DNA from: an uncultured Gammaproteobacteria bacterium
GTDB lineage: Bacteria > Pseudomonadota > Gammaproteobacteria > Steroidobacterales > Steroidobacteraceae
NCBI GenBank assembly: GCA_963707765.1
Contig: CAVPQZ010000001.1
Coordinates: forward strand, 1,346,689-1,410,688
Direction of reading: 5' to 3'
DNA length: 64,000 bases
Shown piece by piece: positions 21,886-29,890 of this stretch. The translations under genes and the position numbers were made by a program. The number at the start of each line of letters is the position of its first letter. Position 1 is the first letter of the stretch. The notes beneath the pieces are model-generated. The model searched no databases and was not told the DNA's origin. It saw only the letters and a list, made by a program, of their open reading frames with translations.

Positions 21886-22589
21886 TGTCAGATCTCCTCA
21901 TGTGAATCCATTGCGGATCGGCTGCCACGGTAAGGCGTCTACTTAGGTTCGTCCGTTCGCTGACACACAGCGGCTACGCAAAGGCGTCCAGCAGTTTCGG
22001 CGGCCGAAAGCCGCCCGACCCGTTGCAACGAGCCGCTTTTGGGGTTGGCCTCCTCGATCAAATATGCCGCTTTCTTACACGGGCCGGGTCTTGACGCATC
22101 CAATTTCGGGCGGTCTCTTTGCCCATCCAATCATTATTGCTGGCCATGGCGCGCGCGGCGACGTTTGGTGATGACTCGTATTGCGCAAATTTGCGGCTGA
22201 ATGAATCAAGGCGACGGCTCCTAAAGACGGCGGCGATGCTAGTGTGTAAATCCATAGCGAGAATTTTACGCTCGCCCGCCACTTCGGTCTGTGCGGTATC
22301 AGACGCCGGCGTCATTCTCGGGGCGACGCTAAGGCGGCGGGCCGGATGAATTTGAGCGACCCGTAGGCGATACATATCGAAGAGTCTTCATCAACAATGC
22401 CGACGTGACATTCGATCATGAAAAGATTCCCGCGTTTGTGCGGGTCCGAACGTAGTCGCGGTGGAACCTACTTAGACGAGTCTGTGATTGGAGTTCGGCA
22501 TTAACGCAAGCGGGTGTCCGATAGGTATCCGCCCATTCCGGGCACCTTCGGACGGCTGATAGAGCCGTCTGTGTGGGTGACCGCACAGA

Positions 22590-23951
22590 GATCGTGTCCC
22601 GGTTAGTGGTGTAAGAGCGGGCCGGTGATGGCGGTCATCGTGAGACTTGGTAAGGTTGAGTTACCACACTTAACATTGCCGAGGATCCCGACGATGACCA
22701 CCAAGCCAACTATGTCACTGGCCGAGCTTGCCGAGAAGGGTGCTGATACAGATTTGCTGCGTGAGATGATCCAGTTTGTCGCCCAGCGGATGATGGAGAT
22801 GGACGCTGAGAGTCTGTGCGCCGCGGCGTACGGGGAGAGAAGCCCGGATCGGGCTAATAGCCGCAACGGTTACCGGGAACGGCTGTGGGAGACGCGCTCC
22901 GGGAGCGTGGATTTGAAGATCCCGAAGCTACGTAAAGGCAGCTATTTTCCTGGTTTTTTGGAGCCGCGACGAACCGCCGAGAAGGCGCTCGCGGCCGTGA
23001 TTCAGGAAGCGTATATCCAAGGCGTCTCAACCCGCTCAGTCGATGAGCTGGTCAAGGCGATGGGCATGGGCGGCATCAGCAAGAGCCAGGTGTCGCGGCT
23101 GTGCGGGGAAATCGACGAGCGAGTGCATGCGTTCCTGGATCGTCCGATCGAAGGGGACTGGCCATATCTGTGGATTGACGCGACCTACGTGAAGGTGCGG
23201 GAGGCCGGCCGGATCGTCTCGGTGGCGGTAATAATCGCCATCGCCGTGAACACCGATGGCGTACGGGAAGTGCTGGGAATGAGCGTCGGACCCTCCGAAG
23301 CGGAGCCCTTCTGGACGAATTTCCTGCGTTCTCTGACGCGCCGAGGTCTGCGTGGCGTCAAGCTGGTGATTTCCGACGCCCACGAAGGCTTAAAAGCCGC
23401 TGCCGCCAAGGTTTTGAAGTCCACTTGGCAGCGCTGCCGCGTCCATTTCATCCGCAATGCCCTGGCGCATGCCGGAAAAGGCCAACGTCAGATGGTTCTG
23501 GCCATGATCAACACCGTTTTCGCCCAGGATACGCAGGAAGCGGCGGTCGCGCAGTGGCGTACGGTCGCGGATCAGCTGCGGGCGAAGTTCCCGAAGCTTT
23601 CCGGCTTGATGGATAAATCTGAGCCGGACGTGTTGTCCTTCCTGAGCTTTCCGAAGGCCCATCGCACGCAGATCCACAGCACCAATCCGCTCGAAAGGCT
23701 CAATGCCGAGGTCAAGCGGCGTACCGATGTCGTGGGCATCTTCCCGAACGAGGCCTCGATCACGCGGCTGGTCGGTGCGCTACTGCTCGAACAGAACGAC
23801 GAATGGCAGCTACAACGCCGATACATGCAACTTGAAGGCTTGCAGACTCTCAGCGACAATCAAACCGCTCGGTTGTCTGCAGTCGTCAACTGAGCATGAG
23901 TTCAATCGAGCCAAGACTCACGACTCATACACCACGCCCTGGGGCACGATC
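22590..23951 (+). mobile_element. IS256-family insertion sequence (1.36 kb), apparently intact
   Basis: Imperfect 28-bp terminal IRs: GATCGTGTCCCGGTTAGTGGTGTAAGAG at the left, and the reverse complement of CTCATACACCACGCCCTGGGGCACGATC at the right (22/28 match). The element is flanked by the direct repeat (C)CGCACAGA at 22582-22589 and 23952-23959. Confidence 0.9.
22694..23893 (+). CDS. IS256 family (Mutator-type) transposase
   Basis: Hallmarks: [76 protein letters not shown] and [16 protein letters not shown]. Confidence 0.95.
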
Positions 23952-24129
23952 CGCACAGATCGAAGTCCAGAGGGAACCTAGGCTATCGTTGCGTGAACGA
24001 CGGGTTAACCGTGATTGCGGCGCTATTACATCCCGATGTACTCGTGTTGTTTTGGCGACGCCCATCAGGATCCACCGCCGTAACCGGGCGCGCCGGCCGC
24101 TTGCCGATATCCATCATTAGGACTAGATC

Positions 24130-24315
24130 ATGAACATCAACAAAGACCAAGTTAAGGGCCGCGTCGAAGAGGCGACAGGTTCCGTCAAGGAAGCCACGGA
24201 AAAGCTCGTGGGCAACCCGACGCTGGAGGCAAAGGGCAACATACAAAAGAACCTTGGTAAGGTTCAATCGAAGTTGGGTGACCTCAAGGAGGACTTCAAA
24301 GAGCCCAAGAAATAG
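24130..24315 (+). CDS. CsbD family stress protein
   Basis: MNINKDQVKGRVEEATGSVKEATEKLVGNPTLEAKGNIQKNLGKVQ. Confidence 0.85.
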   Translation: MNINKDQVKGRVEEATGSVKEATEKLVGNPTLEAKGNIQKNLGKVQSKLGDLKEDFKEPKK

Positions 24316-24557
24316 CGCGATCCGCGTCGACCCATCTCGAGCGGTCAGGAGTATCACCCGGCCGCAAGCGAATTTGCGCTCCGCCTCTGACGTATGTTGC
24401 CTTCCGCTTCGCTTAACAGCGTCTCGGGGTCATCGTGGATCGCTACTCCTTCGATGTGAGACTCTTCCATTCTCTCCTTCTCGCCGGTTTATCCCTGCGT
24501 ACTAAGCGGCTGGGGAAGACACCCTTTTGCTAAACCTGGCAGCTGACTGGAGGTGCG

Positions 24558-24980
24558 TTATTGCGCCCACGGATCATAGGTCCCAAAGTCCCAGTCATTG
24601 CCTTCTGGATCGCGTGCGTTGTAGCTGCGTCCTGGATATCCCTCATTCGCGTGCGGCTCGGTTACGATGTCGGCACCGGCTGCCTTTGCCTGTTGGAAGT
24701 GGGCATCTGGATCATCGATTACGCAGCAGACGCAGGCGGTGATACCGCCGGCTTCGGACGGGGTGCGCCAGCGATAGCGTTCGGCGGCGGGGCCAGGGCT
24801 GGCCGAACTCAACATCACCAAACTGTTGCCAAGCCGAAGCTGGGCATGGTGGATTAGCGACGGGTCCGCCTCGTCGGCATATACGGCGTGACGTTCGAAC
24901 CCAAATGCGACGCAAAGGAACTCTATCGCCGCGAGTGCATCGGTGTAGCGCAGGCAAGGGATGACGGATTGCTGGGACAT
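24558..24980 (-). CDS. VOC (glyoxalase/bleomycin-resistance) family protein
   Basis: Internal ATG. MSQQSVIPCLRYTDALAAIEFLCVAFGFE..GYPGRSYNARDPEGNDWDFGTYDPW is a typical PhnB-like VOC pattern. Confidence 0.8.
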   Translation of the reverse strand: MSQQSVIPCLRYTDALAAIEFLCVAFGFERHAVYADEADPSLIHHAQLRLGNSLVMLSSASPGPAAERYRWRTPSEAGGITACVCCVIDDPDAHFQQAKAAGADIVTEPHANEGYPGRSYNARDPEGNDWDFGTYDPWAQ

Positions 24981-25220
24981 TGCGGATTCCCTATAAATTC
25001 TCGGCTGAGGCATTTTGACTAGTGGCTGAGCGTTGTAGGCTGCCGGCGGTCCGGAAGCAACTCTGCAAGTCGGCTGAGGTGGGCATGCGGATTGTTTTCG
25101 GGGCAGGGCCGTCACCATCTATTTGGGTACATCGCCAACCATCCATGGTACCGACATTGGGACACTCCCTTCGGTTCACTGCGCATTATTTGACATAATA
25201 TACATTATGCGAAGTGAGAG

Positions 25221-25243
25221 GGCGATGTTACACTTGACATACC
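25221..25243 (+). repeat. left terminal inverted repeat of the IS1595-family element
   Basis: GGCGATGTTACACTTGACATACC. Confidence 0.85.
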
Positions 25244-25284
25244 TAGGCTCCTAGCCTAGAATTCAGGCCATAGGAGATTCCGCC

Positions 25285-26196
25285 ATGGCCCAATCCGTAC
25301 TGAACGCCCCCCATTTCCAAAACGAAGCCGCTGCCTTCGCCTACGTCGAAGCGCATCTCTGGCCGAATGGTCCTGTTTGCCCGTTCTGCGGCTCTGGGGA
25401 TCGCGTAGGCCGGTTGAACGGCAAGACCACCCGTGTGGGCCTCTGCAAGTGCTACAGCTGCAAAAAGCCGTTCACTGTGCGTATGGGAACCATCTTCGAG
25501 GACAGCCATCTGGGGCTGCACCTGTGGCTCCAAGTGATTCACCTTATGTGCGCCAGCAAGAAAGGCATCAGCACCCGGCAAGTTCAGCGCATGCTGGATT
25601 GCAGCATGAAAACCGCGTGGTTCCTGACTCACCGTATCCGTGAAGCTATGAAGGACACTGGCGGCATGATTGGCGGGTTCGGCAAGACTGTCGAAGCCGA
25701 CGAAACCTATCTGTCGAAGTCTCCCAAGACCCGCAAGCCGACTGGAAGCGCCCTGAACGCCAAGCCCGCGCCGATGGTCTTCGCTTTGGTCGAGCGCGGC
25801 GGCAACATCCGTTCCATGTACCTGGACCATCGCAACGTGCGCCGCGCCATTGATGTTCATTTGCATATGGACAGCCGCTTGGTCACCGATGGCGCGCAGG
25901 CTTACAAGTTCGTGATGCCGACCCAGGATCAGCACGAATCGGTCGATCACTCCAAGTACGAATGGGTGCGCGGCGATGTTCACACCAACACCCTTGAAGG
26001 CTATTTCAGCATCTTCAAGCGCGGTCTGGTCGGCGTCTATCAGCACATGGACAAGAAGCACCTTCACCGGTACCTGTCCGAATTCGATTTCCGCATGAAT
26101 ACCCGCGTCAAGCTTGGCTTCAATGACGTACAGCGCGCTGAAATCGCACTCAAGGGCTTCGCGGGCAAGCGATTGACCTACGAAACGACTCATTAA
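25285..26196 (+). CDS. IS1595 family transposase
   Basis: N-terminal zinc ribbon (CPFCGSGDRVGRL..CKCYSCKKPFTV), an HTH (ISTRQVQRML), and catalytic blocks VEADETYL, LVTDGAQAYK and HTNTLEGYFSIFKRGLVGVYQH. Confidence 0.9.
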   Translation: MAQSVLNAPHFQNEAAAFAYVEAHLWPNGPVCPFCGSGDRVGRLNGKTTRVGLCKCYSCKKPFTVRMGTIFEDSHLGLHLWLQVIHLMCASKKGISTRQVQRMLDCSMKTAWFLTHRIREAMKDTGGMIGGFGKTVEADETYLSKSPKTRKPTGSALNAKPAPMVFALVERGGNIRSMYLDHRNVRRAIDVHLHMDSRLVTDGAQAYKFVMPTQDQHESVDHSKYEWVRGDVHTNTLEGYFSIFKRGLVGVYQHMDKKHLHRYLSEFDFRMNTRVKLGFNDVQRAEIALKGFAGKRLTYETTH

Positions 26197-26275
26197 AGGC
26201 AAGAAGCTAGCAATCATCGAACAGTTGGTATTCCATTGGCTTAAACGCGGAAATGCTGGCAAGAGAAAATAAAAA

Positions 26276-27079
26276 ATGTGGCGCCTCTTAGTGTGGTTTA
26301 AAGAGCAGAGGCGCCAGCCCGCTCTCAAAAAGCAGAACTCCAATCCCTATAGCAAACAGTGGAAACGCCAACAGTACAAAGACTACATGCAAATAGTCGC
26401 TGCGCTTGACGGCATTTCCAACCAACTTAACGCTACAAATCAACGAAGCGATTCCAACGAACGAAAGAAGCGATTTCGGGAATGGCTTACTATATGGCTC
26501 GTATTCGGCACACTTCTCGCCTCGTTCGCAGCCGATGTTGTGTTCTATCGCCAAATGAGCGAAATGCGAAACGCCAGGGATGATGGCCAATATGCTCTGA
26601 TTCAGTCGCAGCGAGCGTGGATGTCCTTCGCCAGCTTGACTGCAGACATATTTTTGGATCCGGGCCGAGTTCCCATGGGCGCTCAGGCGGTCTTTGAGTT
26701 TAGAAACGACGGCAATACTCCGGCTTTCCATGTGAGTTGCCACACGGGTAAAGGGCATACAATTGCCGAACTTGAAGCACAATCCAAAACCTCGGCTGTG
26801 CAACAGGTTTCGATCGGACCTCATGAGCCGTTGAAATGCATATATATACCCATCGATTTGCAGGAGGTGATTGACGCTTGGGAAAGGAAAGTGCCGTTGT
26901 TCGTAATGAGTCGGATTGAATACAATGATGCCTTCCCCAATACCCCAAGAAGATTCATTGAAGTATGTAGTCCAGTTGAGGTGGTTAGTGATCCAACTAA
27001 GCCGCAAGAAGCTACGCATAGCAAAATTCTTATATTCATAGGAGCCGTTCATGGCCCCCCATGTAATGATGCCAATTAG
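26276..27079 (+). CDS. cargo ORF 1: single-pass membrane protein of unknown family
   Basis: One TM helix (WLTIWLVFGTLLASFAADVVFY) followed by a beta-rich-looking domain (QRAWMSFASL..AVFEFRNDGNTPAFHV..LFVMSRIEYNDAFPNTPRRFIEVCS). Composition is more protein-like than the antisense 311-aa ORF. The start is uncertain (ATG 26276 or 26387). Confidence 0.55.
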   Translation: MWRLLVWFKEQRRQPALKKQNSNPYSKQWKRQQYKDYMQIVAALDGISNQLNATNQRSDSNERKKRFREWLTIWLVFGTLLASFAADVVFYRQMSEMRNARDDGQYALIQSQRAWMSFASLTADIFLDPGRVPMGAQAVFEFRNDGNTPAFHVSCHTGKGHTIAELEAQSKTSAVQQVSIGPHEPLKCIYIPIDLQEVIDAWERKVPLFVMSRIEYNDAFPNTPRRFIEVCSPVEVVSDPTKPQEATHSKILIFIGAVHGPPCNDAN

Positions 27080-27092
27080 GAGAAGAGCGAAT

Positions 27093-27278
27093 ATGAGTGG
27101 TAACCGCAAACAATCTCGCAAAGATACGCCCCAGAAACAACACGCGCGCTTCCTCGAGGCGTCCCGCAAAGTCGAAGCGTCAGAAGATCCAAAGGATTTC
27201 GACAATGCATTTGGCAAGGTCACGGCTAAGCCTTCGGTTCCCCGTTCTCGTCCATCCGGGAAGCGATCTTCTGCATAA
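27093..27278 (+). CDS. cargo ORF 2: small basic protein (61 aa)
   Basis: AGGAG 7 nt upstream, 13 nt after ORF 1. MSGNRKQSRKDTPQKQHARFLEASRKVEASEDPKDFDNAFGKV... Its 3' end overlaps the convergent HEPN-like gene by 53 nt, which lowers confidence. Confidence 0.35.
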   Translation: MSGNRKQSRKDTPQKQHARFLEASRKVEASEDPKDFDNAFGKVTAKPSVPRSRPSGKRSSA

Positions 27279-28032
27279 GACCCTTGACCAATTCCAAGAT
27301 ATGAAGGGCTTCGGGCGCCGTGTACGTGGCACTCAGGTGCATAGTTTCATTGCGGTAGGGATTTTGCATTCCCACAATAGCCCCATAGAGTTTGTCAAAA
27401 AGATGGCCGTCACCGCTCATTCGGCCGGTGAATGACGGCCATCGCTTATCAATAGCTGTCTTTATAGATCCACTGACACTTGACCAATTTCGCTCTTTGC
27501 CAGTGGTCGGATCTGGAATACCAAGACATCGCGTTATTGCACGAATCCCTGCTTCCAACGCCCTGACAGAGTGAAATGCGCTGGCGGTGGTTAGGTCACA
27601 TGCGTAACACTTTCCCGATTGATCTATCTCATAAGCGATACCCGGAAATTTATTGGCAACCTCTATTCCCCACAGCGGTTCGCTGGGCGCATAAAAGTCC
27701 GCGCGATTGGCATCCAGGCAAAAAACCTTTCTAATGGTCAATTCGCGTCGCAATGTGTCAGATATGCTGAGCAATAAAACTCCAAATTGCCCAAATGTAA
27801 GCTTGCCCGGCTCGAGATGCTTTAGACATTCCATAGCCGCCATTGCCGTAATAGGAACGTGTAGCGGAGCAATCGCTTGAGCCATCTTAGTTAGGAGGTT
27901 TACAGCCCAATTGATTTGCTCGGTACCCATGGAGTCGGTCTGCGAAAAACTGGCATGGCCATCTATCCTTGAAAGCGTCAGCTGCAAGGTAGTTACCACT
28001 TCGTGATAGTTAGAAGCGTTCAGTTCGTACAT
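27226..28032 (-). CDS. cargo ORF 3: HEPN-like domain protein (RNxxxH motif)
   Basis: 268 aa. The C-terminal half shows helix 1 (CYACDLTTASAFHSVRALEAGIRAI) and NPYRNETMHLSATYTAPEALHILELVKGLMQKI, which fits the Rx4-6H HEPN signature. The N-terminal ~130 aa are helical with no recognised family. Confidence 0.6.
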   Translation of the reverse strand: MYELNASNYHEVVTTLQLTLSRIDGHASFSQTDSMGTEQINWAVNLLTKMAQAIAPLHVPITAMAAMECLKHLEPGKLTFGQFGVLLLSISDTLRRELTIRKVFCLDANRADFYAPSEPLWGIEVANKFPGIAYEIDQSGKCYACDLTTASAFHSVRALEAGIRAITRCLGIPDPTTGKERNWSSVSGSIKTAIDKRWPSFTGRMSGDGHLFDKLYGAIVGMQNPYRNETMHLSATYTAPEALHILELVKGLMQKIASRMDENGEPKA

Positions 28033-28134
28033 TTACCACAGGCTCCATAGCCGGCGGCAGTCAAATGACGAAATGTCCGGGCGAAAACCGTTGCCGGCAG
28101 AAACGGCGCTCACTTACCATACCCCTTGTTGGCG

Positions 28135-28157
28135 GGTATGCCAAGTGTAACATCGCC
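28135..28157 (-). repeat. right terminal inverted repeat of the IS1595-family element
   Basis: GGTATGCCAAGTGTAACATCGCC is the reverse complement of the left IR with one mismatch. Confidence 0.85.
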
Positions 28158-28175
28158 AGTGAGAGAGTATAGGGG

Positions 28176-28221
28176 CCAAGTTAAAATGTCCGCTTTGAGC
28201 CAAGTTCAAATGTCCGCTTTG
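28176..28221 (+). repeat. two 22-bp direct repeats (subterminal repeats upstream of the ISNCY transposase gene)
   Basis: CCAAGTTAAAATGTCCGCTTTG (28176-28197) and CCAAGTTCAAATGTCCGCTTTG (28200-28221) match at 21/22 positions. Confidence 0.8.
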
Positions 28222-28297
28222 GATGCTTTAACCCGCAGTCTCTGCTGTCCTTTTTGGGACTCGGAGATTGCCAATGCGCCACGCAGCCAGGGTGACG

Positions 28298-29890
28298 ATG
28301 AGCATGCGCGAACTAGATCGGCTCAAGTGCATACAGGCAGTCGTTGACGGACAACTATGTCCCGGCATCGCTGCCGAACGGCTAGGTATCTCGACCCGGC
28401 AGCTGCGCCGGATCGCGCAACGATATCGTGCTGAGGGCCCGACCGGGCTGATTTCCAAGCACTGTAGTCGCCCCAGCAACAACCGCCTGGATGCCAGCCT
28501 GGAGGCCCAAGTCGTGAAGATTCTGAGGGAGTCATACCCCGATTTTGGTCCAACATTGGCAGCTGAGAAGCTTCAGCAGCGTCACGGCATCACGGTCGCC
28601 AAGGAGACCCTGCGGCGCGTTCAGATGGATGCTGGATTGTGGATTCCACGCAAGCTTCGGCCGCCGAAGGTCCAGCAGCCGCGGGCGCGGCGTGCGTGCT
28701 TTGGCGAGCTGATTCAGATCGACGGCTGCGAGCACCATTGGCTCGAAGAACGTGCACCGATGTGCACTGCGCTTGTTTACGTCGATGATGCCACGAGCCG
28801 ACTGATGGTCGTTCGATTCGCCGGCAGCGAGTCCACATTCGGATACTTCGAGGCCACGCTCGAGTATCTGAGGCACTTCGGCAAACCGCTCGCGTTCTAC
28901 AGCGACAAGGCCAGCATTTTCCGCATCAACCAGCCAGGCGCCGTCACGGGACCCGGATACACGCAGTTCGGACGGGCGCTTTATGAGCTCAATATTGACG
29001 GGATTTGCGCTAATACCGCCGCAGCCAAGGGTCGCGTCGAACGGGCGCACTTGACGCTGCAGGACCGCCTGGTCAAAGAGCTGAGGCTCGAGGGCATCTC
29101 GAGCATCGAGGCCGCCAATGCCTTCATGCCGCGCTTTATCAACGAGTACAACAGGCGTTTTGCGAAGGAAGCCCGCAACAGCCACAACGCGCACCGCGCC
29201 GTCAGAGACGACGAAGATCTCGGTTCCATTTTCAGCTGGCGCGAGCTGCGCAAAGTGACCAAGGCGCTCACGCTTCACTATGAGCGCAAGCTCTATATCC
29301 TAGCGGACACAGCCATCAACCGAGGTCTCATCGGCAAGTACCTCGACGTATTTCAGTTTCCCGACGGTCGCATTGAGATTCGAGCAGCAGGGGTGTCACT
29401 GCCCTACTCCGTCTACGATAAATTGGGCGCCGTTGACCAAGGAGCGATCGTCGACAGCAAACGACTTGGCCACGTCCTGCAGATCTCTCAGGAAGTTCAG
29501 TCCAAGCGCGACAACCGAGCCGTGAACGTGCCCTCGACTGCTCATCGTGCAGACGGACAGATCGTTCCGCGTCACAAGCTGGCCGGTACCAAGACGCAAC
29601 GGGAACTGTCACCCGAAGATCTTGAGATTGCAGTTCAGTCCAAGGCCGAGATTGCGCAGCAACAGCGACGACTTCGAGAATCGGGATTGCCGGCCAAGGC
29701 CGGGAAGCACAGAGCTTCTAACGCTCTGGTCCAAAAACTGCGTCCGGGCGCGGTCCTCAGAATCACGTCGAACGGCAATCCGACTATCGGTCGTCGTAGC
29801 GTCTCGGGAATAAGATGCAAAAGGTCGTTCCCACGTTTTGGACCGATTGGATCTCGATCGTCGCATCAAACATTTCGCACAAGCGCTTGA
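28298..29890 (+). CDS. ISNCY-family (IS1202-group-like) transposase; the 3' end probably runs past the element into flanking DNA
   Basis: MSMRELDRLKCIQAVVDGQL..AAERLGISTRQLRRIAQRYRAEGPTGLISKHCSRPSNNRL, LIQIDGCEHHWLE, VYVDDATS, AFYSDKASIFR and KGRVERAHLTLQDRLVKELR. The last ~107 nt overlap the convergent kinase gene. Confidence 0.8.
   Translation: MSMRELDRLKCIQAVVDGQLCPGIAAERLGISTRQLRRIAQRYRAEGPTGLISKHCSRPSNNRLDASLEAQVVKILRESYPDFGPTLAAEKLQQRHGITVAKETLRRVQMDAGLWIPRKLRPPKVQQPRARRACFGELIQIDGCEHHWLEERAPMCTALVYVDDATSRLMVVRFAGSESTFGYFEATLEYLRHFGKPLAFYSDKASIFRINQPGAVTGPGYTQFGRALYELNIDGICANTAAAKGRVERAHLTLQDRLVKELRLEGISSIEAANAFMPRFINEYNRRFAKEARNSHNAHRAVRDDEDLGSIFSWRELRKVTKALTLHYERKLYILADTAINRGLIGKYLDVFQFPDGRIEIRAAGVSLPYSVYDKLGAVDQGAIVDSKRLGHVLQISQEVQSKRDNRAVNVPSTAHRADGQIVPRHKLAGTKTQRELSPEDLEIAVQSKAEIAQQQRRLRESGLPAKAGKHRASNALVQKLRPGAVLRITSNGNPTIGRRSVSGIRCKRSFPRFGPIGSRSSHQTFRTSA

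Follow-up and report, generated by a model that had tools for sequence, protein, structure and literature searches.

Passenger-carrying insertion sequences (ISs) are recognized as transporter ISs (tISs), a class described as restricted to the IS1595 and IS66 families (TnCentral preprint 10.1101/2021.05.26.445724). Here we describe an IS1595 member at positions 25221–28157 of a 64,000-nucleotide stretch of DNA, hereafter the window, from an uncultured member of the Steroidobacteraceae (assembly GCA_963707765.1, contig CAVPQZ010000001.1, positions 1,346,689–1,410,688). An earlier note on this stretch had pointed to passenger-carrying IS1595 elements in ISfinder, a kind of element that the preprint confirms. 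This 2,937-bp tIS of the IS1595 family is intact and appears to be present in a single copy; in addition to its transposase (gene tnp), it encodes a single-pass membrane protein (open reading frame (ORF) 2), a small basic protein (ORF3) and a convergent protein with HEPN-like features (ORF4). Like IS1595 tISs in general, it combines a zinc-ribbon and DDE transposase, short inverted repeats (IRs) starting with GGCGATG, an 8-bp target-site duplication (TSD) and passengers inside the IRs; it differs in that the long form is the rule in its clade, not the exception. Within IS1595, the ISPna2 subgroup of ISfinder is characterized by GGCnnTG ends, an 8-bp direct repeat, a DDNK-type catalytic signature and passenger-bearing variants. 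The ends of the window element, which begin with GGCGATG, agree with the GGCnnTG pattern, and it may belong to this subgroup. We consider it rather probable, as an overall reading, that it belongs to a large clade with two cargo slots and that ORF4 acts as a HEPN-type RNase effector of the abortive-infection or addiction kind; the structural part of this reading is solid, and the function is inferred.

Cargo of related types is known from other mobile elements. Tn3-family transposons are described in PMC7157771 as carrying integral toxin–antitoxin (TA) modules. The window element resembles the elements described there in having toxin-type genes near its transposition module, plausibly for element maintenance, but it is a single-transposase IS with no resolvase and no recognized antitoxin, and in its clade the small partner gene is convergent and constant whatever the cargo family. 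Tn7-like transposons carry defense-gene cargo (PMC8649781). With these and with integron cassettes bearing defense genes the clade shares a conserved mobility backbone and a defined cargo position at which diverse defense- or toxin-type genes are exchanged; in contrast to both, one or two genes are housed in an IS of 2–3 kb, the defensive function of the cargo is one that we infer, and exchange would apparently proceed via homology in orf3 and the right IR rather than via the attC/attI sites of integrons. In the literature, we found no description of a two-slot plan around ORF3, of convergent cargo driven from the right IR, of toxin- or defense-type cargo or of the +1-frame tail described below for such elements.

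The boundaries of the element can be read directly. Its left terminal IR (IRL, 25221–25243, plus strand, GGCGATGTTACACTTGACATACC) and right terminal IR (IRR, 28135–28157, minus strand) are inverted copies of each other over 23 nt, differ at one position and bound the 2,937-bp unit, and a search allowing up to three mismatches returned just this pair in the 64 kb and none in 100 shuffles. On the outside, both arms are flanked by the identical octamer AGTGAGAG (25213–25220 and 28158–28165), a perfect 8-bp TSD. The first ~1 kb is occupied by tnp (25285–26196, plus strand), whose intact 303-aa product is a transposase of the IS1595 family, combining an N-terminal zinc ribbon with a DDE domain of the ISXO2-like type; matches to PF12762 (4e-26) and PF12760 (2e-11) both exceed the Pfam cut-offs, and NCBIfam NF033547 (IS1595 family transposase) is matched at 1e-48 (166 bits, cut-off 75). 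This protein has thousands of homologs, the closest non-identical one sharing 87% identity. Downstream genes follow tightly, with gaps of 3–14 nt between tnp, the +1-frame tail, ORF2 and ORF3. The part beyond tnp is AT-richer than both the transposase gene and the host DNA, with a GC content of 0.493 (26201–28134) versus 0.570 for 25221–26200 and ~0.58 for the flanks; GC at third codon positions is 0.74 in tnp, 0.51 in each of ORF2 and ORF4 and 0.63–0.67 in host genes. In its account of the repeats, the duplication, the transposase and the AT-richer part, as in that of the cargo ORFs (one hydrophobic segment in ORF2, a 61-aa basic ORF3 and a convergent 268-aa ORF4 with an RNxxxH motif), the earlier note agrees with our data.

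The note had further proposed that the 2.9-kb element moved as one unit, which is upheld by the intact IR pair, the TSD and a multicopy relative. One metagenome-assembled genome contains four copies of a 2,540-bp ORF4-carrying element, 99.7–99.9% identical to each other and with differing flanks, two of which retain a perfect 8-bp TSD. This relative has ends of the sequence GGCAATGTTTCACTTG, a transposase 51% identical to that of the window and homologs of ORF3 and ORF4, arranged as in the window element. Similarly, the exact ORF4 homolog P0102 occurs beside tnp in at least three flank contexts. The multiple copies and contexts of these relatives support mobility of the whole unit, passengers included. 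All public contigs encoding the exact ORF4 or tnp turned out to be either this locus or its counterpart in a 97%-identical strain, where the element occupies an identical position, and megablast of the element against plasmids gave no match. A break in a Logan contig at 25197–25226 was considered as an empty-site branch and rejected, as it does not fit.

The organization of the clade was studied in 80 metagenome loci fetched via the transposase (59–88% identity), among which the combination of an IR pair and an 8-bp duplication delimited 38 relatives. All 38 have GGCGATGTTACACTTGAC-type ends, 33 have a perfect 8-bp TSD, and their lengths range from 1.9 to 5.1 kb, mostly 2.0–2.8 kb. None of them is a ~1-kb version, and no IRR close to tnp was detected in ~12 further contigs with enough flanking sequence. 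The elements share a backbone in the order IRL with its putative promoter, tnp followed by a basic tail in the +1 frame, a variable slot A, orf3 (~55–70 aa), a convergent variable slot B and IRR. The distance between tnp and ORF3, that is, slot A, varies from 14 nt to >1 kb, while ORF3 and the convergent slot are common to elements with transposases only 47–88% identical. A profile hidden Markov model (HMM) of ORF3 matched 32 of the 38 delimited elements (E values of 1e-11 to 1e-25). The single three-gene cargo module of the earlier note thus dissolves into a backbone gene, ORF3, with ORF2 and ORF4 in separate slots on either side.

Slot B contains unrelated protein families. Members of the ORF4 family, recognized by matches to HMM A1 and the RNxxxH motif, occupy it in eight elements, counting that of the window, and DUF3800 proteins in 15 (PF12686 above cut-off in three of four tested). 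One element (L078) carries a RelA_SpoT protein (PF04607) with a full-length match to the PADLOC candidate PDC-S33 (2.9e-112), four (L008, L035, L039 and L053) an unannotated family defined by BLAST clustering only, and one another 282-aa ORF with no matches. The remaining ten elements have plus-strand cargo, including a PIN protein with a partner, an HNH nuclease and ~200-aa RNxxxH proteins. Pairs of closely related elements reveal cassette replacement: L011 (ORF4-type) and L014 (DUF3800) are 86% identical over positions 1–1517 and unrelated beyond, and L076 (ORF4-type) and L078 (RelA/SpoT) are 79% identical over positions 1–1248. In other element pairs, a ~110-nt orf3 core stands out as similar, with a variable region on each side. 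Because orf3 is shared and the regions flanking it are swapped, we assign ORF3 to the backbone and ORF2 and ORF4 to separate slots.

Several further observations concern the sister elements. Proteins of the four-member unannotated slot-B family are 164–246 aa long, start with MKFTLIYDGPLP and contain a GDIDNRxK motif; a RusA-like label suggested by this motif was dropped, as neither Pfam nor PADLOC supports it. The ~200-aa RNxxxH proteins belong to a sub-branch (L068, L069, L072, L077 and L081) with GGCGATTATATACTTGAC or GGCGATGTTACCCTTGAC ends, are encoded co-directionally with tnp and may represent a second, unrelated HEPN-like cargo type; that of L077 has a faint DUF4145 match. ORF3 is missing from four of these five elements (L069, L072, L077 and L081), L068 being the exception. 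A search with Rfam of the window element and 20 related loci for DUF3800-associated or other RNA motifs returned none but one flanking tRNA.

ORF4 (268 aa, 27226–28032, minus strand), the slot-B occupant of the window element, has a helical N-terminal half that varies between homologs, whereas its C-terminal ~150 residues are conserved and include an RNETMH motif at residues 227–232. Its invariant residues are H154, R157, E160, R181, W183 and R227-N228-x-T230-x-H232, and R227, N228, T230 and H232 were unchanged across 60 diverse homologs and again in a second set of 50. A word-indexed search yielded 137 homologs. With a profile and a threshold of E ≤ 1e-3, 8,008 cluster representatives (clustered at 50% identity) were found, and 1,890 of these also reached 1e-30. 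AlphaFold2 models had mean predicted local distance difference test values of 92.8 for the full-length protein and 94.9 for the C-terminal domain. In Foldseek searches with the C-terminal model, 2hsb ranked on top by probability (1.00, template modeling (TM) score 0.51/0.62), with further HEPN fold matches to AbiA, 2q00, 1ufb, 1wol and 1o3u; the full-length model gave weak matches with AbiA first, the C-terminal model alone providing the clearer HEPN ranking. One homolog from JGI was labeled ‘HEPN domain-containing protein’ by its source. Taken together, the motif is present and the fold match is suggestive, while a curated sequence-family match is absent, and we therefore term ORF4 HEPN-like, retaining the reading of the earlier note on the strength of an invariant motif and a weak, HEPN-led fold ranking.

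Known HEPN effectors offer a comparison for this protein. DUF3800 and HEPN are both retron-associated effector domains, and type IX retrons have a HEPN partner (PMC7736814). Like the HEPN domain at the C terminus of AbiA (PDB 8oz7) and like the retron IX protein, ORF4 has an all-alpha domain, predicted in its case, with an invariant R-x4-H of the RNxxxH type. As in Abi and retron effectors, the N-terminal half is variable and could be a sensor, and family members occur on mobile elements and in prophage surroundings. In one case, the surroundings of a homolog are prophage-like and comprise TIR, Trypco2 and DUF4145 genes, RecT, SSB and an integrase; six relatives were found in viral contigs, and another homolog was intact beside a fragmented tnp. 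Unlike curated HEPN and Abi families, ORF4 has no sequence-profile match, its fold matches are weak, and it features an additional invariant H154-x2-R157-x2-E160 helix.

ORF3 (61 aa, isoelectric point 10.7, 27093–27278, plus strand, with its ATG at 27093) is a real small protein and part of the clade backbone. The family has a basic N terminus, a core of the form …(T/P)xxE(R/Q)HARF(V/I)ExAxKxEAxExPxxFDxAFxK… and a basic tail that is rich in Ser and Pro in the family alignment, and the antisense frame of the gene is interrupted in several homologs. Searches revealed no Pfam relative, no PDB relative at the profile level and no match to an antitoxin family. ORF3 stands tail-to-tail with the slot-B gene, next to at least five unrelated cargo families. 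In the window, its 3′ end overlaps that of ORF4 by 53 nt (27226–27278), and the same overlap is seen again in such distant relatives as the P0102 and P0081 loci. Wherever slot B is convergent (28 elements), the ORF3 match runs at most 112 nt beyond the cargo stop codon or stops at most 16 nt before it. The P0081 loci (L144–L146) contain the ORF3–ORF4 pair with the 53-nt overlap and no transposase in phage-like surroundings with VapE-like and GcrA genes and numerous small ORFs. About 95 bp upstream of ORF4, these loci have a degenerate IRR-like sequence, and they look like the stranded right half of an element.

Putative promoters are embedded in both ends of the element. On the left, TTGACA–17 nt–TAGAAT (25234–25262, plus strand) matches the consensus at 11 of 12 positions and lies ahead of a GGAG ribosome-binding site and the start codon (ATG) of tnp. 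Its inward-facing −35 hexamer (25234–25239) coincides with IR positions 14–19, where 26 of the 28 related left ends compared have TTGACA and the remaining two TTGACG; a −10-like hexamer recurs at equal spacing in the left ends of related elements. On the right, the presumed ORF4 promoter, TTGGCA–17 nt–TATGGT (28116–28144, minus strand, nine of 12 consensus matches), lies in and beside IRR. Related right ends have TTGGCA, TTGCCA or TTCACA (one-off variants of TTGACA), mostly followed by a TATGAT-like hexamer and pointing inward to the cargo gene. The inward promoter-like sites, tight gene packing and recurring 53-nt ORF3/ORF4 overlap suggest two convergent transcription units driven from both transposase-binding ends. 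As a separate observation, IRR and IRL of related elements show a near-constant difference at IR positions 16–17, inside the −35 hexamer, with TTGGCA, TTGCCA, TTCACA and TTCGCA as right-end variants and TTGACA on the left. This asymmetry would reflect either a weaker promoter on the cargo side or discrimination between the ends by the transposase.

From these data we propose that ORF4 would function as a stand-alone HEPN-type ribonuclease effector carried for a benefit to the element or its host. Its expression would likely be held in check by the tnp–orf3 transcript running into its 3′ end across the 53-nt overlap, by ORF3 itself or by both. A second check would likely come from binding of the transposase to the promoters within the IRs. 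Swapping of cargo between related elements would proceed through recombination that involves the conserved orf3 core on one side and IRR on the other.

The tnp–ORF2 junction contains another conserved feature. An open stretch in the +1 frame (26177–26272, plus strand, PTKRLIKGKKLAIIEQLVFHWLKRGNAGKRK*) overlaps the last tnp codons, encodes a conserved basic tail containing …IKGKKLAIIEQLVFHWLKRGNAGKRK and …LAIIEQLVFHW…, and stops 3 nt short of the ORF2 ATG. The tail closes with a motif of the form Q-L-x-[LF]-x-[FWL]. Sister elements maintain the peptide with synonymous (wobble) changes. In a set of 98 distinct tnp 3′ regions from related elements, a Q-[LIMV]-x-[LFM]-x-[FWL] motif close to where an open stretch ends was present in the +1 frame in 37, in the +2 frame in two and in frame 0 in none; examples are QLVFHW (window), QLVFDW, QLELPF, QLSLPF and QMRLPL. 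This motif resembles the beta-clamp-binding consensus Q-L-S-L-F/L reported for the flexible C termini of several transposases (PMC3971601), although the nine clamp-binding transposase families of that study do not include IS1595. The tail could extend the transposase through a programmed +1 frameshift or could be a coupled micro-ORF. Of ten longer homologs of the transposase, nine showed no in-frame fusion to the tail, P0185 alone ending in frame with …RQIGLPF; no uniform slippery site was found in the related tnp 3′ regions, and the conserved entry codon is ATG or TTG in eight of 37 cases and otherwise ATA, ATC, ACG, ACA or ACT.

Within this stretch, the earlier note had seen a degenerate IRR (26227–26249, 30 bp past the tnp stop codon) and concluded that the cargo had been captured via a distal IR. 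Such a one-off event, in which a canonical ~1-kb IS acquired ~1.9 kb through a distal IRR and left a decayed copy behind, would explain the match to IRR at 13 of 23 positions, which we reproduced, as well as the AT-richer cargo. Scores of 13 or more are, however, reached at 82 positions in the window and at three others within the element, placing the match at chance level. The site furthermore lacks the terminal GCC and encodes the peptide conserved in sister elements, the ~1-kb form is missing from the 38 delimited relatives, and ORF3 and the convergent slot are shared across the divergent transposases noted above. We thus do not consider the site a relic end and regard the capture scenario as highly improbable. 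Even less credible is an origin of the outer IRR from a second, truncated IS, with the genes in between as trapped host DNA. The region is IS-rich, with an IS256-family element to the left and a transposase-like gene directly to the right, but identical 8-bp direct repeats flank the whole unit, no transposase fragment adjoins IRR, and IR pairs with TSDs enclose the same gene order at dozens of sites that are otherwise unrelated.

Two other explanations concern the role of the genes rather than their origin. ORF3 and ORF4 might constitute a TA addiction pair that stabilizes the element or replicon, with ORF3, or its transcript acting in antisense across the 53-nt 3′ overlap, as the antidote. 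The tail-to-tail abutment of a small gene and the cargo gene, the persistence of the overlapping pair in the transposase-free P0081 context, the HEPN-like, PIN and RelA/SpoT cargo (all typical toxin domains) and the precedent described for Tn3 (PMC7157771) speak for such a pair. Against it, the genes are convergent and not co-transcribed, unlike those of type II TA systems; a specific protein antitoxin would hardly be expected from an ORF3 family that accompanies at least five unrelated cargo families; ORF3 is absent from about half of the genome loci with an ORF4-family gene; and ORF3 matches no antitoxin family. On balance, a TA pair appears unlikely. Still less probable is that the extra genes serve transposition itself, through target choice, regulation or recruitment of host factors, and not a host or defense phenotype. 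The conservation of ORF3 together with the transposase across the clade, the predicted promoters within transposase-binding sites at both ends and the conserved tail after tnp, which add up to more coding features than in a plain IS, fit this idea. A fixed mechanistic role is, however, at odds with unrelated slot-B families in otherwise near-identical backbones and with the persistence of ORF4 homologs without any transposase, leaving it a viable role for ORF3 alone.

Several results weigh against the reading that we prefer, a two-slot tIS with ORF4 as a HEPN-type RNase effector. ORF4 had no match in Pfam, NCBIfam or PADLOC at E ≤ 1, and the Foldseek matches were all weak (E values of 0.2–2.3, TM scores of 0.4–0.6), with generic helical bundles interleaved. 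Its profile likewise gave nothing meaningful against PDB sequences, none of ORF2, ORF3 and ORF4 matched PADLOC-DB v2, and the sole match of the cargo proteins across Pfam, NCBIfam, PADLOC and PHROGs was a short one, to PHROG 32483, whose function is not annotated. Among ten sister cargo proteins compared to PADLOC, only that of L078 had a strong match; because of this, the label ‘defense’ rests on domain types. For ORF2, a search of 5.8 billion proteins returned a self-match only, and without real homologs it may be nonfunctional. The neighborhoods of ORF4 homologs, which the earlier note had suggested surveying, gave a varied picture: a convergent IS1595 tnp lies within 3 kb in 21 of 48 genome loci, many with flanking IRs, but about half of the genome loci have no IS, no ORF3 and no conserved neighbor. 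No conserved partner gene was found for the IS-free homologs, and because about half of the loci lack ORF3, ORF4 does not need it. The search for other copies and empty sites, also suggested there, revealed the multicopy relative described above; of the window element, no second copy was found in public contigs and no empty site, including in a CsbD-anchored look-up.

If the preferred reading holds, some of the smallest bacterial transposons would be more than bare transposase genes and act as standard vehicles by which toxin or immunity effectors encoded by single genes are moved and swapped, adding a new route for the spread of defense genes beside Tn7-like transposons and integrons. The succession of tnp, orf3, convergent gene and IRR would then serve as a genomic hook for finding new effector families; with the ORF4 family alone, this would open up >8,000 cluster representatives that lack annotation. 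ORF3, the IR promoters and the +1-frame tail would be defined as candidate regulators. The window element itself is a well-formed member of a recognizable class, with a putative cargo function. We also tentatively consider a more far-reaching possibility, in which this large IS1595 clade, plentiful in metagenomes of soil and peat as well as in Alpha-, Beta- and Gammaproteobacteria, is a two-slot cassette shuttle for single-gene toxin or defense effectors, built around ORF3, as a universal small protein not described before, and mirror-image IR promoters. Expression of its cargo, ranging from HEPN-like, DUF3800 and RelA/SpoT to PIN/HNH proteins and others, would be wired to transposase binding and convergent transcription, and the tail, with its motif of the beta-clamp-binding type (QLxLxF), would link transposition to replication as a product of programmed +1 frameshifting or as a coupled micropeptide.

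ORF2 (267 aa, 26276–27079, plus strand), the orphan in slot A, comprises a basic N terminus, a hydrophobic transmembrane segment at residues 71–91 and a C-terminal domain of ~175 aa. Its codon-position signature is like those of tnp and ORF4 and stronger than that of an antisense 311-aa ORF (26288–27223, minus strand). A weak positional relative with equal architecture exists in L048 (24% identity, pairwise E value of 5e-6), and slot A of related elements often holds small or membrane-type ORFs, with ORFs bearing transmembrane segments recurring there. These features make ORF2 a probable, though unproven, gene. The antisense ORF, which spans ORF2 and part of ORF3 and shares their third codon positions, was rejected as a real gene, being broken in several homologs and weaker in codon-position signature. 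Its similarity to L048 is spurious and derives from the ORF3 and ORF2 regions on the opposite strand; this shadow ORF could mislead annotation.

The tIS lies between a glyoxalase-like gene and a transposase-like gene, and adjacent regions contain further mobile DNA. To the left, an IS256-family element (22590–23950) with a Transposase_mut ORF (22625–23893) is polymorphic between samples, because the Logan contig L151 joins 22316–22589 straight to 23951–24659 with a 9-nt overlap and thus represents its empty site, which came to light in the CsbD-anchored look-up. To the right, less than 10 bp past the TSD, two 23-bp direct repeats (28175–28197 and 28199–28221) resemble transposase-binding sites. 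They precede a 540-aa ORF within 28166–29890 that has HTH_32, HTH_29 and HTH_23 domains, no DDE-domain match and no second gene after it on its strand. The 28166–29890 segment is probably another, possibly truncated, mobile element that inserted back-to-back with the tIS.

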